A stretch of 64,000 bases of DNA from a virus (taxonomy: Duplodnaviria; Caudoviricetes): IMG/VR virus record IMGVR_UViG_3300015050_000913, positions 5,385 to 69,384 of that record. One strand, written 5' to 3'. Positions within the stretch are counted from its first letter, which is position 1; every line of letters begins with the position of its first letter. The notes beneath the pieces are model-generated. The model saw nothing but the letters and a program-made list of their open reading frames with translations, did no database searches and was not told the origin of the DNA. The translations under genes and the position numbers were made by a program. Below are positions 2,882-22,014 of this stretch, one piece after another.

Positions 2882-3105
2882 TTCTTTGGGTATTTATTCC
2901 GTGTTACATCAACCGCCTTTGTGATTCTAATACTGTTTTCCTTCCTTATTTTTTTACTTAGTTTCTCCAGTTCCCGTAACTGCTGTGACGGGGTAAGCCC
3001 CGACAGTACTTCAAGTATTTTATCCTGAATACTCATATTGAGTAATTTGTAAGTGTTTATTGAGTAATTTGTTTTTTTCTGATTGGCTGATGTGAGGTCT
3101 TTCAT
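2878..3105 (-). CDS. Hypothetical protein
   Basis: 75-aa ORF overlapping both neighbours by 1-4 nt. Confidence 0.55.
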   Translation of the reverse strand: MKDLTSANQKKTNYSINTYKLLNMSIQDKILEVLSGLTPSQQLRELEKLSKKIRKENSIRITKAVDVTRNKYPKK

Positions 3106-4166
3106 TACTTAGGTGTTGATAGTAGCAAATGACGTTTCTGTTTTATGTTTATACTACTTAATCGTTTCCTACCAGTAGCACCACAATTATCACAACGTAA
3201 AAGTACAAATTTATTGGCTGTCGTTACATATTCCTTACCCTCGTCTTTTAATTCATTACTTCCACAAGTAGGGCATCTTTCCTGACCTTCATCAAGTAAA
3301 AATAGCCCACAGTTAGGATGTGGCTTTATCCAGCTTCTTATTCGCAAATATGTTTCTTCCAATATCTTAACGTCTGTTATGTTGTATGCTAACATTTTTT
3401 TCAGGCTTTCTTCATTACCATTGTAGCAACCCTCCCAAAGTTTAAAACCCCCTGTATCTTGTTTTCGTTCTAAATTCAATAGTTTGTTAACGTAATCAAG
3501 TTTATTGCTTGTAAAGCCAAACTGCCTCCTGATATGCTTTAGCGTGTCAATGCTTTGGTAAGGTAATGGAGGGTTAAGTCTGTGTTGTATAAAACGGCTG
3601 TTAAGTTTTGGTATATCAAATTTTTCCCCGTTGTGAGCAATTACAATATCTGCTTCATTCATCAACGCCCAAATACTTTTAATTATCCGACTATCATCCT
3701 GCTTTAATGCTTCTTTCCCTGTTAGCCTTGCTGAATAAACTTTGTCCTCAAATAACCATTTAGCAGCCCAAGTAAAACAAAACCAATCAGCCTGTATCAT
3801 GTCTATACCCACGTTCTGTTGCCATATACCCCACACATAGGCTTTTATTGGGGCAGTTTCAATATCAAGTACCAATATTTTTGCTTCCGTATTAATTACC
3901 TCTTTGAATGGTCGGTAATTAGATGTATCGTATGTGGTTGCCACATACATTGATTTGTCCTTATTATTTTTTCGTGATATTTCACCATTAGTTCCAAGTA
4001 TATTATTTATATACGCCCGTCTAATGTGTTCAGGAGATTTTAGGGCAGGGAATTTTTTGTGGTTTTCAATAAATATTTTTTTTGCAAGCGTTAATTTTTT
4101 TAATGCAGGATAGTACTGTTTACAGTATTCCTCGCACAATTCCCTTTCGGGAGATTTTTTACGCAT
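3105..4166 (-). CDS. RNase H-like (DnaQ/PolB-type) 3'-5' exonuclease with C-terminal Zn ribbon
   Basis: VLDIET, AHNGEKFDIP, SIDTL and YNITDV motifs; CPTCG...CDNCG. Confidence 0.75.
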   Translation of the reverse strand: MRKKSPERELCEEYCKQYYPALKKLTLAKKIFIENHKKFPALKSPEHIRRAYINNILGTNGEISRKNNKDKSMYVATTYDTSNYRPFKEVINTEAKILVLDIETAPIKAYVWGIWQQNVGIDMIQADWFCFTWAAKWLFEDKVYSARLTGKEALKQDDSRIIKSIWALMNEADIVIAHNGEKFDIPKLNSRFIQHRLNPPLPYQSIDTLKHIRRQFGFTSNKLDYVNKLLNLERKQDTGGFKLWEGCYNGNEESLKKMLAYNITDVKILEETYLRIRSWIKPHPNCGLFLLDEGQERCPTCGSNELKDEGKEYVTTANKFVLLRCDNCGATGRKRLSSINIKQKRHLLLSTPK

Positions 4167-15990: not shown

Positions 15991-16072
15991 ATTGCAGTAT
16001 GATAACGGGTGTAAAAATCCAAAATGGGGTGTTTAAGTGCTGCAATCGCTTAAATATCCCAATTTTTATTTT
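15991..16072 (+). promoter_or_regulatory. Structured 5' leader (A-B-A'-B' plus U-tract)
   Basis: 15991-15999 pairs with 16038-16046; 16026-16039 pairs with 16047-16060; U-rich run up to the ATG. Confidence 0.45.
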
Positions 16073-16711
16073 ATGGAAAATTTACCAAGCCTCGTGGGTA
16101 GAAAATTCGGCAGACTAACCGTGTTATCATTTAGCCATTCATCAAAACATAAAAGATACTGGAATTGCGAATGTGAATGCACTTTAGGCAAGGTGGTACA
16201 AAAGCCCACAGGCTCGCTAACATCTGGAAAAGTTAAGAGTTGTGGATGTTTAGGTATTGAGCATCAAAAAAATGGGAATGTTACTCATGGGCAAACAATA
16301 GGTGGTATTACATCGGAATATGAGGCATGGCAAGGTATGTTTAAAAGATGTTATAACCATAATACTGTACGATTTGAAAATCACGGTGGCAGGGGAATCG
16401 AAGTATGCGAAAGATGGAAAAAATTTGAAAACTTTTTTGAAGATATGGGTAAAAAGCCAACTCCTAAACATTCTTTAGATAGGATTAATAATGATGGTAA
16501 TTACGAACCGTCAAATTGTAGATGGGCTACTCCAAAAGAACAATGTTACAATAGGCGTAGCACAAGGTTTATAGAGTATAATGGAGTTACTAAGATATTG
16601 CAAGAATGGTCAGATTTTTTTGGGTTAAGTAAGTCAAGTACACTAAGCTATTATATAAAAAAACATGGCGTAGAAAAGGCTATGCTTCACTACGCCAATA
16701 GGAATAAATGA
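16073..16711 (+). CDS. HNH-type homing endonuclease
   Basis: GRKFGRLTVL, GGRGIEVCERW and HSLDRINNDGNYEPSNCRWAT motifs. It runs antisense to its neighbours, and its stop abuts the portal stop with a 0-nt gap. Confidence 0.8.
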   Translation: MENLPSLVGRKFGRLTVLSFSHSSKHKRYWNCECECTLGKVVQKPTGSLTSGKVKSCGCLGIEHQKNGNVTHGQTIGGITSEYEAWQGMFKRCYNHNTVRFENHGGRGIEVCERWKKFENFFEDMGKKPTPKHSLDRINNDGNYEPSNCRWATPKEQCYNRRSTRFIEYNGVTKILQEWSDFFGLSKSSTLSYYIKKHGVEKAMLHYANRNK

Positions 16712-19084
16712 TTATGCTTCCGCTTTCTCTTGTTTTTGATTAGCAATAATTTGCTTCTCTTTCTGATGAACCCCTGTTATTTCATTAGAAACTATTTTAG
16801 CTTGCCCTGTTATTTCTGCTACACTTGTTTTAGCTTGGTCATTACTCAACGCAATACGTTCTTGGCTCTCTATTTTCATCTGTGTTATAGCCACCTCCTT
16901 TTGTGTTTCTATTTGTAGCTTCTTTAACTCATGGTCATATTCCATTTGTTTTTGTTGGGCTTGCAGTTGTGCTGCCACCTGCGCCGCTTGAGTGCTTCCG
17001 TCGTTATTAGCCTTAATTGTTTCTAACTGATTATTTTGTAACTCTTTCTTTTGTTTCTTAACACGATAAGCCAGCAAGGTCATTGCTTGTTTTGCGTTCA
17101 TGGTAGATATAACAGCAATGGCATCACTTGTGTCTAAGAATCCATTTGCTATATCTGCCTGCACCATTTGGAATATCCAGTTCTTTTCTTGTTCTGTTGT
17201 TCTTTTTTGTAATTCAATACCATAATCTCGTAGAGATAATTTTTCATCTACCTCTATAAACCTTAGTGTATTTACTCCTAAAGCACCACTATACGGAACT
17301 GACCCTGATATTTTCCCCTTCCGCACTCCTTGTTGGATACGACTAAAAACATCTTCCGCTAATCTTAAACTTAGGCTTTCTTCTGCGTATGCTAAAGGGA
17401 ATAAGGCTTCATTTGTTGATTGGTTTGCCATTTCGTACCCCGGCACAAGTGTCTTTGGATTAGGATTACCACTTGTAATATCATTGTACCCTGTCATTTT
17501 TTCAATAGCCATTACTGTATTTTGCAGGTCTTGGAAGAAGCCTACTAATTCAGACATAATTGAATTTTGCATGGCAATAATTGGCTGTGTATTTCCTTGT
17601 ATTGGTTCGCCTACATCATTGAGTGAACGTCCAAATGCTATACCACTATCTAAAAACATTTGTAGTATTTCCTGTGGTGTCATGTTTTCTCCACCTTTGT
17701 TCTTGGCTACGTTTTCCAATTTATCCATATCAATCCACCATCCACTTGGTACAGCCCTGTTCTTAAAGTTCTGTATTTTAAGCATGGTTAATTGGTAGTC
17801 ATCAATGTAAGGTATAAGCCTTTCCATAAAACCCTGCGCCCTCATTTCATAGAAGTTATAAGCCACTAATTGTATTGGTAATCTTGTTAATGCTTTTTTG
17901 CTGTAATCTTGTTTTCTTTTTTGGTCATAGCATTTACCCCAATCATAACATTTATCAGTACCAATAATCCACTTGCATTTATAAACGTATTGTATTCTTT
18001 TACGGGTGTATCTTTGATTGGTTAACTCACCCCTTCCACTTACTTCCATTCTGAATTTAACATTACCATTTGTATCACTAACATTTGTATAGGTTTCTTC
18101 ATCGTATGAATAGAAGTACATATCAAGTACTTTGCATTTAAACTTATCGTATGGTTTAATTAATGCTGTGGTAGAACCCATGCCAAATTCTCTTGGATTA
18201 CCAAACTTACCTGCAATGCTACCTGCAAATTCCTGTAATTCTTTTTCATCAAACATTGGTGAACCATCTTCATTAGTAACCAATGCAAGGTCAACCAATG
18301 ATACATCTCTTACCACCCCTGCGTGTTGCATATCACTAAATGTACCGTCTTTGGCATAACTACATATTACACTTTCGGGGTTAACTCTTTCAAACCTTGC
18401 TTTGTTGTCATCGCCTAAACATTCAAGATACCCTGCTACTCCATAATCAAAAAGGTCTTCATACCATGCTTTTCTTACTGCCTTATAATTATTTTCATAA
18501 AATCCTAATTCAATAGCCATTTCAGCATCCATAGAACGGTTAAACTGCTCTCCATTCATTACTCTCATTTCCAATTCTTCTAAATCCATTGGCTCATTAC
18601 TTTCAAGAGATACTAATGGGTGGTTTGCAAGTTCTGAATTTTGTTGTGCTAAAATATCACGCATGATAATCTTAGTCCGTATCTTATTGTAAAATTCTTC
18701 TGCCTCTGATTTACTTTGGCTATCCACAGGTGTTGCCACAATGGAATAATCTTCTTTCATTAAACGGCTTATCGCTTTATCCCTGTAACCACTAACCACT
18801 GCTCTTATCGTCCAATCCACTACCAACTGTGTATCAAGAGTAGCCATATCTACTCCTAACATTTTTTTATATTGGTTTACAGGTTGCTTACCAAGTGCGT
18901 ACATACGGAACTTCTCATAATCTCCACCGTTACCATAAAATACTCCTTTCGGATATGCTGTGGTAAAGTCATAATACGCTGCTTTAGCATACGCCATACA
19001 CCATTCAGAATTTTTTTTATCTGCTGGTACATTTTGGTTAGGATAACTATATGAGCTACCATTATTTAGTGATTGATACTTCAT
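16712..19084 (-). CDS. Portal protein
   Basis: 790 aa with helical/coiled-coil C-terminus; lies between terminase and the scaffold/capsid genes. Confidence 0.75.
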   Translation of the reverse strand: MKYQSLNNGSSYSYPNQNVPADKKNSEWCMAYAKAAYYDFTTAYPKGVFYGNGGDYEKFRMYALGKQPVNQYKKMLGVDMATLDTQLVVDWTIRAVVSGYRDKAISRLMKEDYSIVATPVDSQSKSEAEEFYNKIRTKIIMRDILAQQNSELANHPLVSLESNEPMDLEELEMRVMNGEQFNRSMDAEMAIELGFYENNYKAVRKAWYEDLFDYGVAGYLECLGDDNKARFERVNPESVICSYAKDGTFSDMQHAGVVRDVSLVDLALVTNEDGSPMFDEKELQEFAGSIAGKFGNPREFGMGSTTALIKPYDKFKCKVLDMYFYSYDEETYTNVSDTNGNVKFRMEVSGRGELTNQRYTRKRIQYVYKCKWIIGTDKCYDWGKCYDQKRKQDYSKKALTRLPIQLVAYNFYEMRAQGFMERLIPYIDDYQLTMLKIQNFKNRAVPSGWWIDMDKLENVAKNKGGENMTPQEILQMFLDSGIAFGRSLNDVGEPIQGNTQPIIAMQNSIMSELVGFFQDLQNTVMAIEKMTGYNDITSGNPNPKTLVPGYEMANQSTNEALFPLAYAEESLSLRLAEDVFSRIQQGVRKGKISGSVPYSGALGVNTLRFIEVDEKLSLRDYGIELQKRTTEQEKNWIFQMVQADIANGFLDTSDAIAVISTMNAKQAMTLLAYRVKKQKKELQNNQLETIKANNDGSTQAAQVAAQLQAQQKQMEYDHELKKLQIETQKEVAITQMKIESQERIALSNDQAKTSVAEITGQAKIVSNEITGVHQKEKQIIANQKQEKAEA

Positions 19085-19085
19085 T

Positions 19086-19625
19086 TTATGCTATTTTTAA
19101 ATGTTTCCAAAATTTTCTATTTACTACTCCGTGTGCGTGACCTGAAGATATATTAAACTTATCAGCTATCTCTTTAAATGAAAATCCACCAGTATTATAT
19201 AGTGATATCATATTCCTAACATCTGATTCTGTTAGTTTTGCAGTCCCACTATTTTCCCCACTCTGATTAAATCCCAAATTCTCTCTTGAATGTTTCATAT
19301 TACCTACGCCATCAGTCCAGTTTAGATTGCTTCTTTTATTATTAGACTTATCCCCATCTATATGATTAACCTCTGGATATTTTTTAGGATTACTTATAAA
19401 ATACTGTGCCACTATCCTATGAACATACATTCTCTTACACCCTCCATTATTCCTAAGTGCTACCATACAATAATTTTTCCCTGCACTGTATGGTTTTAAT
19501 ATAATATCAACACCAGATTTAGATGACATGATTCTACCCATATTACTTACTTTATACCCTTTGTCAACTCCTTTTATATCTTTCCATATCTCATAACTCC
19601 CGTTGTTTAATGCCTGATATTTCAT
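19086..19625 (-). CDS. NUMOD4-HNH homing endonuclease
   Basis: EIWKDIKG, YKVSNMGRI, VHRIVA and VNHIDGDKSNNKRSNL motifs. Confidence 0.85.
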   Translation of the reverse strand: MKYQALNNGSYEIWKDIKGVDKGYKVSNMGRIMSSKSGVDIILKPYSAGKNYCMVALRNNGGCKRMYVHRIVAQYFISNPKKYPEVNHIDGDKSNNKRSNLNWTDGVGNMKHSRENLGFNQSGENSGTAKLTESDVRNMISLYNTGGFSFKEIADKFNISSGHAHGVVNRKFWKHLKIA

Positions 19626-19645
19626 GGTTATCTATTTTTTAATTT

Positions 19646-21727
19646 TTATACAGCCTTACGGTAAGGCATGAAATCTTGTAATGTTTTTTTATTGTCTGAT
19701 TGTAATGCGTATCTTTTGTTCTTCGCTGCTATAAACGCAAACCCACTACTCATTGCATCATCGTACTTTTGAGTATTGGCTACTTCAAATCCAAGCCATC
19801 CTGAATCTAACCCTAATAACTCTTTAAAATAAACCTTATGTACACTTTTTTCAATATAGGATTCTGTATAATCACATATAGATTGTACTACATTACCCTT
19901 ACCATCTGTGTATATACCAAATTCAACTTCGTTTGGTAGCCACATTAAAAACCCTGCACACTTCTTTGATTGAAAATATTTCTTTGGACTTTCCCCTATA
20001 TTTCTTTCTATTAAAACCTGACAACTACAATACCATGCCATCTTTAAAACATTTTCGTACTGTAAATCTGTTGTAGATGGTCTTCCTGAATACCTCATAA
20101 CAAACATATCATTATAAGGGTCTTCTGCGTTCATTAAGTCCTCCATTTGATAAGCATACGTTGCACATGATGACTTTCGTATGTCCTTTGTTTTATCATA
20201 TTTGAAAGGGTCACATCCTATCCTTATGGCATAATTTGAATTAGGGAAAAAGCTGCCGTTTTTTTGATATACATTATTTTGTTCTTTTGGTTTCCACCCT
20301 TTTACTTTCTCGTAAATTCCATTGTTATTAGGTGTCCAAATAAGTTTGCCTACTTTTACATCTATACTACCGTCAGGATTTACAACCTGCTTGTAATATT
20401 CATCTTGATTTTCCCAAACTAAGTTGCCACGTTCCAATACATCATTATAACTAAGCCAATCTAATTGGTCATTTAATTTTATTTGGTCATACAAGCACCC
20501 CACATTAGCCAACTGAAACATTTCCTTTTCATCAAAAGGGTTCATCCTTATTTCTTCTTCAAGCTGCGCCCCTTCTAATTGAACTCTGCGTTGTAATAAA
20601 TATTCTCTTGCACCTAATCTTATATCATCTTCTGATAAGTCACCTGCGCCTACAAAGTTTTCTACTAAATAAGCATATTGTTCTTCTGTTGGTGGGTCAA
20701 TAACGCTTTCTCCATACCTTCCAATAAAACCATAATACCCATCGTATGCAGGGGTAAAATATTTTACAAGCCTGTTTGGTGTCCTATCGGTGTATTTTAA
20801 TTGGTTTGCATTATCCCAAACTATTTTAAATTCTTCACCACCATTAGTCATGGCATTAGTTGTGGATGGACATTCTAAAAAACCCACTCTCTTAGCACCC
20901 TTTACCAATGTTTTACTTACAATGGAAATAAATGTAGAAAATGGTACTTCTTTTGCCCACTTAGAACCCTCATCAACCAAGCAGCGTGAAAGCCTACCGG
21001 AATCATACGCATTTAATGAAGGCGCACGATAATCAACTTTACTACGGTGTCCTGTATCCGTATCTAATGCACCACCTTTACCACCTTTTATATCAACTGT
21101 CTTATGTGCAAACACTAACTCGCTTACACTATCCTTGTTGTTTAATTGTTTTGGTTTTAAGAACACAGGTAATTGCCTATACCCAAAAGAAATCATGTTT
21201 GTAAATGCAGATTTAGCATCTACCTGACTTTTGCTCGTAAGTCCACAAAAACTATTCTTAAAAAATATACACTCGTAAACAATATTAGATGTAGCTACTG
21301 ATGTAGCCCCCTGCCTTCTTTTCTTACCAATTAAAGCACCCAAGCACCATGAAGTATTTTCCCAATGATTAAGGAATAAAAAATACCTTCTGTCTAAGTC
21401 ACGATATTCAGGGAAAATATCATCTTCTAATTTCCAATGTTGTAGGTAGAAGTAATTTTTGCCTGTTATAAATGTTGGTTTACCACAATTCATAAACCAA
21501 AAACCTTCCTTGCACCTTCTTACTTCTTCTAAAGCGTATTCTCTTTGTTGGAAATTAAGTAGTGCATTACCATCCTTATCGTACTCTACTTCATTAAAAT
21601 AATTAGGCAATGGCAACCTTCTCCAATATTGCATCTTTGGATTATCTGCATACCCCCAATCTTCTACCTTTTCAGGTACATCAGGTAGTGATACCTTTGC
21701 ATTAAATATTTCAATTACTTTACTCAT
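19646..21727 (-). CDS. terL: Terminase large subunit
   Basis: KKRRQGATS (Walker A-like), LVDEGSKW (Walker B), IGCDPF and YDDAM nuclease motifs; adjacent to portal. Confidence 0.85.
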   Translation of the reverse strand: MSKVIEIFNAKVSLPDVPEKVEDWGYADNPKMQYWRRLPLPNYFNEVEYDKDGNALLNFQQREYALEEVRRCKEGFWFMNCGKPTFITGKNYFYLQHWKLEDDIFPEYRDLDRRYFLFLNHWENTSWCLGALIGKKRRQGATSVATSNIVYECIFFKNSFCGLTSKSQVDAKSAFTNMISFGYRQLPVFLKPKQLNNKDSVSELVFAHKTVDIKGGKGGALDTDTGHRSKVDYRAPSLNAYDSGRLSRCLVDEGSKWAKEVPFSTFISIVSKTLVKGAKRVGFLECPSTTNAMTNGGEEFKIVWDNANQLKYTDRTPNRLVKYFTPAYDGYYGFIGRYGESVIDPPTEEQYAYLVENFVGAGDLSEDDIRLGAREYLLQRRVQLEGAQLEEEIRMNPFDEKEMFQLANVGCLYDQIKLNDQLDWLSYNDVLERGNLVWENQDEYYKQVVNPDGSIDVKVGKLIWTPNNNGIYEKVKGWKPKEQNNVYQKNGSFFPNSNYAIRIGCDPFKYDKTKDIRKSSCATYAYQMEDLMNAEDPYNDMFVMRYSGRPSTTDLQYENVLKMAWYCSCQVLIERNIGESPKKYFQSKKCAGFLMWLPNEVEFGIYTDGKGNVVQSICDYTESYIEKSVHKVYFKELLGLDSGWLGFEVANTQKYDDAMSSGFAFIAAKNKRYALQSDNKKTLQDFMPYRKAV

Positions 21728-22014
21728 TTTCTGTCAGAAGCTATTGTTTCAACAAATGGTTTATTTTCATGCTCGGACGCATCCATTTTTAATATCCCTG
21801 CTGTTTGCCCCAATGCTTTTGTTGCCTCTGCTACCTTTGCAGCACTATCCCATAATACTTTAAGCCTTTCAAATGACTTATCTTTTGAATCTGTAATATC
21901 CAAACTCTTTAAATTAGTGGCATTTAATAGCTGTGCCATTTCTACCATTTTTTTATTTAAAGCGTGATATAACTGTTCTGAACCGCTTTGTTCTAATTTT
22001 TCTTCCATAATCAA
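21724..22014 (-). CDS. Small helical protein, possible terminase small subunit
   Basis: Position and 4-nt overlap upstream of terL only. Confidence 0.4.
   Translation of the reverse strand: MIMEEKLEQSGSEQLYHALNKKMVEMAQLLNATNLKSLDITDSKDKSFERLKVLWDSAAKVAEATKALGQTAGILKMDASEHENKPFVETIASDRK

Follow-up and report, generated by a model that had tools for sequence, protein, structure and literature searches.

Apparent capture of a phage portal gene start by a NUMOD4-HNH endonuclease, with a diverged 5' end completing the portal

Introduction

Endonuclease genes that enter a protein gene together with a duplicate of one of its ends are described from fungal mitochondria, where mORF hybrids occur in atp6 of Allomyces macrogynus and in atp6, atp9, cox2 and nad3 of Glomus sp. 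(PMC3630166). An mORF adds a C-terminus of foreign origin to the gene while the native one stays behind, and it is the native end that matches the uninvaded relative (PMC3630166). Here we analyse 64 kb (the window, meaning the whole stretch of DNA examined, whose numbering is used throughout) of the 69,384-bp virus record IMGVR_UViG_3300015050_000913 (G000), which is rated complete and has inverted terminal repeats. In this window an endonuclease gene with NUMOD4 and HNH domains (hereafter HNH) lies between terL, which encodes the terminase large subunit, and the portal gene, and the beginnings of HNH and portal are nearly the same in protein, which points to capture of the portal translation start by the nuclease. 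An earlier note on this DNA had drawn the parallel with fungal mitochondria, and end duplication is indeed documented there, though at 3' ends (PMC3630166).

As in the mORF hybrids, an endonuclease open reading frame (ORF) has entered a protein gene with a diverged duplicate end that restores the gene, no intron being needed; the endonuclease-free relative resembles the native end more than the inserted one, and the two copies diverge far less in protein than in DNA. The two arrangements differ in that mORFs concern 3' ends, organelles and LAGLIDADG or GIY-YIG enzymes, whereas the window has an HNH enzyme at the 5' end of a phage gene, and in that the displaced native piece is here not a dead relic but supplies the start codon and first ten residues of the nuclease. 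By analogy, the portal case may be regarded as the mirror image of an mORF hybrid, working alike without being a member of that set.

Among phage systems, the T4-like MobA element in the topoisomerase large-subunit genes 39/60 deletes 55-75 nucleotides (nt) and supplies a homologous, polymorphic HomR that contains the nick site (10.1101/2022.08.31.505936; PMC2988022). It shares with the window locus an HNH cassette inside an essential phage gene, a target stretch exchanged for a homologous one, recent and recurrent insertion, and near-identical uninvaded relatives. Unlike the portal, however, which stays a single ORF of 790 amino acids (aa) with no bypass while the nuclease takes the gene start, the gene invaded by MobA is split into two extended polypeptides and depends on translational bypass of 50 nt, which blocks nicking as well. 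The free-standing Seg and Mob endonucleases of T-even phages home without introns, use upstream host expression signals and co-convert their flanks (PMC2988022, PMC2790892). The window HNH resembles them as an endonuclease gene outside any intron or intein, spread by break repair in a neighbouring gene and dependent on upstream signals, but Seg and Mob genes sit between genes and have their own start codons, and neither fusion to a target start nor a duplicated gene end is described for them in the literature surveyed (PMC2988022, PMC2790892). Bacillus phage SPO1 has an enzyme of the same build, I-HmuI (1U3E), with NUMOD4 followed by an HNH nuclease, but its gene belongs to a group I intron within the DNA polymerase gene, and the I-HmuI chain opens directly with the NUMOD4 Trp and lacks a borrowed prefix. 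Searches of the literature turned up no description of start capture combined with a replacement 5' end in a phage, which is weak evidence of absence given that subscription journals were thinly covered.

Results

The HNH ORF begins MKYQALNNGSY and continues EIWKDIKG, and the portal ORF begins MKYQSLNNGSSY. Over the first ten codons, nine of ten residues are identical, with seven codons differing only synonymously, at the wobble position, and one differing non-synonymously (Ala/Ser). The earlier note had described both this shared N-terminus with its wobble-level DNA differences and a portal start one base after the HNH stop (TAA A ATG), and both descriptions hold. An in-frame TAG two codons upstream of the ATG leaves HNH without an earlier start and its next Met, residue 29, lies inside NUMOD4, so that there is no other usable start. 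Across all 710 candidate starts of the window, no other same-strand pair at most 3 kb apart has at least 7 of 11 N-terminal residues alike. The prefix, which the earlier note considered might recur in NUMOD4 homologues independently of the portal, is carried by none of the 119 other NUMOD4-HNH homologues, most of which begin M-x(1-3)-E-I/V-W. Chance likeness of the two N-termini is excluded.

Comparison was extended to 28 loci, comprising the window and 27 related loci; the window portal is 53-84% identical to the portals of 26 viral contigs. The portal start motif in the 27 related loci reads M, K/R/Q, Y, a variable stretch, G, then Y/F-P-Y-P, and this family motif identifies the HNH prefix as derived from the portal. 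In 22 of the 28 loci the terL stop and the portal ATG are separated by 1-22 nt and by nothing else, and the ATG at 19625 therefore occupies the portal-start position; six of the 28 have a NUMOD4-HNH gene at this junction. A likeness between the 20 nt upstream of the two window ATGs was considered and rejected, as the background is AT-rich and the sequence before the portal encodes the conserved HNH C-terminus K-F-W-K-H-L-K; in locus L032, described below, the 20-nt stretches upstream of the two ATGs show no likeness.

Evidence on the direction of the event came from contigs of four freshwater runs from four studies (X1-X4), which were aligned to window positions 17500-21000. The runs with near-identical DNA are freshwater, lake and drinking-water metagenomes, and an HNH-free allele was seen in three of them (X2, X3 and X4), representing three different metagenome studies. 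The X3 contig (467 nt, depth 13) matches 18895-19036 with 0 differences, continues with 17 letters that the window lacks and then matches 19595-19900 (306 nt, with 8 differences and 1 gap), skipping 558 nt. The X2 contig covers 18729-19036 with 1 difference (307/308 nt), followed by 30 loose letters that start with the 17 of X3, and the X4 contig covers 18889-19036 with 0 differences (148/148), followed by the first 9 of those 17 letters. All three depart from the window at the same base (19036), and the portal flanks of the HNH-free junction allele are 99.7-100% identical to the window. Read on the minus strand, the HNH-free allele is in frame and consists of the ten codons of HNH, six codons encoding S-F-P-Y-P-S, and then portal codon 17 onward; its protein start, MKYQALNNGSSFPYPS followed by QNVP..., matches the family consensus and is a better fit to it than the Y-S-Y-P of the window. 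Codons 7-10 in the X2 letters read AAC AAC GGG AGT, exactly as in the copy at the start of HNH (copy 1), while the copy at the start of the window portal (copy 2) reads AAT AAT GGT AGC, differing at all four wobble positions.

These alignments indicate that the HNH prefix is the native portal start. Since this genome lacks the 17 native bases, the HNH-free form cannot have arisen by deletion from the HNH-plus form, and the HNH-plus state is the derived one. The earlier note had proposed that HNH-free relatives would tell which copy is ancestral, and copy 1 matches the ancestral portal 5' end, letter for letter in codons 7-10; its proposals on the polarity of insertion and on in-frame capture of the portal start are borne out by the HNH-free metagenome contigs and the 22 HNH-free relatives. 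Across X1-X4, no contig covered the HNH interior at 85% likeness except a 35-nt X3 piece, a result that is uninformative on the frequency of the HNH-plus allele. This piece matches the conserved HNH core (19336-19370) with both flanks unlike, and it probably stems from a further member of the nuclease lineage present in that water sample.

The first 16 portal codons of the window stand out from the remainder of the gene in comparison with the native allele. Of the 48 nt in this stretch 15 differ, changing 8 codons synonymously and 4 non-synonymously, compared with 0 differences in the next 142 nt (Fisher p 1.7e-10), and the amino-acid changes lie in codons 5-16, one of them being a three-base codon change. 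Such a sharp boundary argues that the patch is part of the insertion and was delivered with HNH. It looks like a diverged or foreign portal allele rather than a purely synonymous recoding, and the excess of silent over amino-acid differences between the copies can be explained without special selection, since ordinary orthologue pairs at ~78% nt identity match it (11/11 N-terminal residues identical, with 5 synonymous differences). The earlier note's suggestion that a recoded 5' end restores the portal stands in so far as the end is differently spelled and the portal whole, but the replaced end spans 16 codons rather than about 11 and includes the four amino-acid changes. Its placing of the insertion about 11 codons into the gene is likewise right about the frame, but the joint follows codon 10, and the Tyr at position 11 may belong to HNH, the closest HNH (that of locus L031) reading S-N-E-I-W there. 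At 19049-19054 the portal has Y-S-Y-P where the native allele and most relatives have F/Y-P-Y-P, the patch thus altering a family-conserved motif.

Further cases were sought in metagenome contigs, using the aligned closest HNH proteins as the query, and five loci of the same HNH lineage were found (41-57% identity), four of them between terL and portal. In L032 both HNH and portal begin MRYEQISSGAQ, with 11/11 residues identical, 6 codons synonymous and 0 non-synonymous, and in L034 both begin MRYIDING, with 8/8 residues identical and 4 codons synonymous. The HNH-portal spacer is 0-3 nt in L032, L033 and L034. The joints differ among the window, L032 and L034: the L034 joint lies in microhomology, the portal D-I-N-G standing in for the NUMOD4 K-D-I-N-G, and that of the window may lie at the Ser codon AGT, which is also present in the L031 HNH. 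Start capture appears to have occurred at least three times independently, and database proteins P0002-P0004 (56-61% identical to HNH) also begin with portal-like residues (MRY...). In L033 and L031 the nuclease occupies the same junction with its own start and no prefix, and in L021 (3468-4019) a different NUMOD4-HNH lineage (35% identical) does so with its own start MKEIWKD, again without the prefix. Taken across these loci, the terL-portal junction is an endonuclease hot spot. The portal 5' ends of L021 and L033 were tested for a local patch and none was found, identity being evenly ~78%, and degenerate DNA patterns for the window and L032 portal N-termini gave no match in the viral contig collection. 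The last 19 nt of the L021 HNH run over the portal start in a different frame, a C-terminal extension of the L031 HNH (2990-3544) overlaps the portal start by 29 nt, and the terL stop of L032 overlaps the HNH/portal-type ATG (ATGA, 3029-3032) such that the usual spacer is gone.

The endonuclease itself has intact domains and catalytic residues. NUMOD4 (PF07463) is matched at residues 12-58 over profile positions 1-49 of 49 (E 4.9e-9, 36.7 bits, cut-off 23.4) and HNH_3 (PF13392) at residues 67-103 (E 4e-6, 26.8 bits, cut-off 24.8), the first 11 residues of HNH falling outside the NUMOD4 domain as delimited by Pfam. The catalytic residues H88, N100 and H112 do not vary across the 5 closest homologues (alignment A1). 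The sole PDB match is I-HmuI (1U3E, E 1.9e-18), a nicking homing endonuclease, aligned across the HNH motif, and the window protein shows I-HmuI-type features in its NUMOD4 domain, its catalytic HNH motif and its presence or absence at one fixed site among close relatives. A putative C-terminal helix-turn-helix is indicated by Pfam matches of that type at residues 131-169, which are below the cut-off (E 0.003-0.004). A DNA search of the phage collection returned short HNH-motif matches only and no near relative.

Coordinates of the features are collected in Table 1. The terminase shares ~29% identity with its counterparts in cultured podoviruses of Flavobacterium (elemo group) and Cellulophaga, and the source phage is of a little-known freshwater group, with a host probably in the Bacteroidota. 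A second, unrelated HNH gene (16037-16711, plus strand; phrog_374, E 1.6e-70) is convergent with the portal gene, the two stops abutting with zero bases between them, and a 45% identical homologue of it lies behind the L032 portal (L032 5977-6600). A second endonuclease hot spot seems to lie at the portal 3' end; a search past the second HNH gene for a relic of that end gave nothing.

Table 1 Features of the terL-portal region in window coordinates.
Feature	Position	Strand	Basis
terL, terminase large subunit, 693 aa	19646..21727	-	phrog_6681, E 2e-81
terL-HNH spacer, 20 nt	between 19646 and 19625	-	terL stop and spacer in the ancestral arrangement
Copy 1, native portal ATG and codons 2-10, now the HNH N-terminal prefix	19596..19625	-	ancestral distance from terL stop; HNH-free contigs
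NUMOD4-HNH endonuclease ORF, 179 aa	19086..19625	-	Pfam; phrog_59, E 1e-40
Spacer of one base, HNH stop to portal ATG (TAA A ATG)	19085..19085	-	sequence
Copy 2, replacement patch, portal codons 1-16	19037..19084	-	comparison with native allele
Portal, 790 aa, complete single ORF	16712..19084	-	phrog_6547, E 3.8e-65, profile positions 5-786 of 827

Discussion

Very probably, a cassette consisting of an I-HmuI-type NUMOD4-HNH gene and diverged portal codons 1-16 entered the portal gene by break-induced repair. By comparison of the window with the HNH-free allele, the native portal was kept to codon 10 and fused in frame to HNH, which is thus translated from the portal's own start site, while native codons 11-16 (17 nt) were lost. 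The insertion comprises HNH from about its second residue, its stop, one base and a new 16-codon portal 5' end, the last of which restores a complete portal without splicing. We propose that the enzyme nicks or cuts HNH-free alleles in or beside the replaced stretch (native codons ~10-17), that the right-hand broken end then invades the donor and copies the donor portal 5' end and HNH, and that the left end reseals at short microhomology. A joint would survive only if in frame, because the nuclease has lost its own start. The border at codons 16/17 is a candidate cut site, since strand invasion from a break would leave a border of this sharpness. The lost stretch encodes the family-conserved F/Y-P-Y-P motif, and stretches that encode conserved protein motifs are a typical kind of target for such enzymes. 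The 15 differences in the patch would make the invaded genome a poor substrate, and we infer that the patch gives it immunity to cleavage. Portal translation would depend on reinitiation after the HNH stop, and the one-base spacer suggests coupling of termination and reinitiation; wobble positions at the HNH 3' end, tested as a hint of portal initiation, are no more conserved than the rest of the gene. The patch could have come from a donor phage as a foreign portal allele, or it could be an allele with a long history of linkage to the nuclease in this phage population.

Several points weigh against this account. The HNH-free codons 1-6 are known by the X3 alignment only, in which 4 of the 8 differences are unlocated, codons 7-10 being base-verified, and the contigs are short and unitig-like, linked to the phage genome via identical flanks of 142-308 nt only. 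The patch donor was sought in the 27 related loci and none was found, the best match (32/48 nt) being no better than that of the native allele, and an HNH-free near relative of L032 or L034 was not obtained. The candidate target site and the presumed immunity of copy 2 follow from the replacement footprint only.

The alternative that fares best, though we consider it unlikely, dispenses with a foreign donor: the portal start would have been duplicated in situ, giving identical copies that later acquired substitutions avoiding repeat-mediated deletion of the nuclease or self-cleavage. That no donor lineage was found among the 27 loci agrees with this, as does the pattern over the three captured starts, in which 17 of 26 non-Met codons differ synonymously and 1 non-synonymously, as expected from selection on spelling under protein constraint. 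However, ordinary orthologue pairs at ~78% give the same pattern with no need for special selection, and the four amino-acid changes of the patch (codons 5-16) are like those of ordinary allele divergence. Repeat avoidance would, moreover, equally favour changes in the unconstrained copy 1, yet copy 1 equals the native sequence where this can be checked, the native copy having been a working portal start until the insertion event. Insertion of a cassette with an already diverged portal end is the reading that we prefer.

The same counts (17 synonymous against 1 non-synonymous difference across three independent captures) are the basis of a more speculative proposal, which we regard as improbable, that the identity of the copies is kept by selection and that the portal peptide is a tag docking the nuclease on the terminase-procapsid, so that HNH-free genomes are nicked at packaging. 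If true, start capture would itself be adaptive, and more than a scar with which the phage remains viable.

HNH proteins adjoin terminase genes in HK97-like phages, and the window protein could by that comparison be a domesticated packaging accessory with the shared N-terminus as a functional tag, a view in keeping with its place between terL and portal and with the protein-level conservation of both copies in three loci. We consider this very unlikely, because the gene is missing from 22 of 28 loci and from HNH-free alleles with 99.7-100% identical portal flanks, because L031, L033 and L021 lack the prefix, and because its NUMOD4 and HNH_3 architecture is that of I-HmuI and not of the small stand-alone HNH of the HK97 gp74 type. 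That the portal is interrupted after codon 10 by a self-splicing intron or an intein carrying HNH, copy 2 being irrelevant, is scarcely credible: although I-HmuI-type HNH enzymes are intron-encoded in Bacillus phages, there is no Rfam group I or II match at E up to 1 in window positions 16000-22000 and no Hint/intein domain by Pfam, the portal is complete from its own ATG with a profile match from position 5, and HNH is read in a different frame that closes with a stop codon. The splicing-free arrangement put forward in the earlier note agrees with these searches. An assembly artefact chaining two strain variants of the portal 5' end, conceivable in a metagenome-derived record given that both 5'-end alleles exist in nature, has a negligible probability in view of the intact 540-nt endonuclease ORF between the copies and the same architecture, with other sequences, in the independent assemblies of L032 and L034.

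The finding implies that no intron or intein is needed for a homing endonuclease to settle at the start of an essential virion gene, which it does by taking over the translation start of that gene and bringing a spare 5' end. Invaded and uninvaded states are both present in natural freshwater populations and form a before-and-after pair, in which the sharply bounded 48-nt patch points to a candidate recognition or cleavage site. Repeated invasions with different joints provide a natural series on how break repair makes in-frame fusions, and the same series bears on the part that selfish nucleases play in setting recombination boundaries within phage structural modules. Short duplicated starts of this kind can, in addition, mislead gene callers and comparisons that use portal or terminase as markers.

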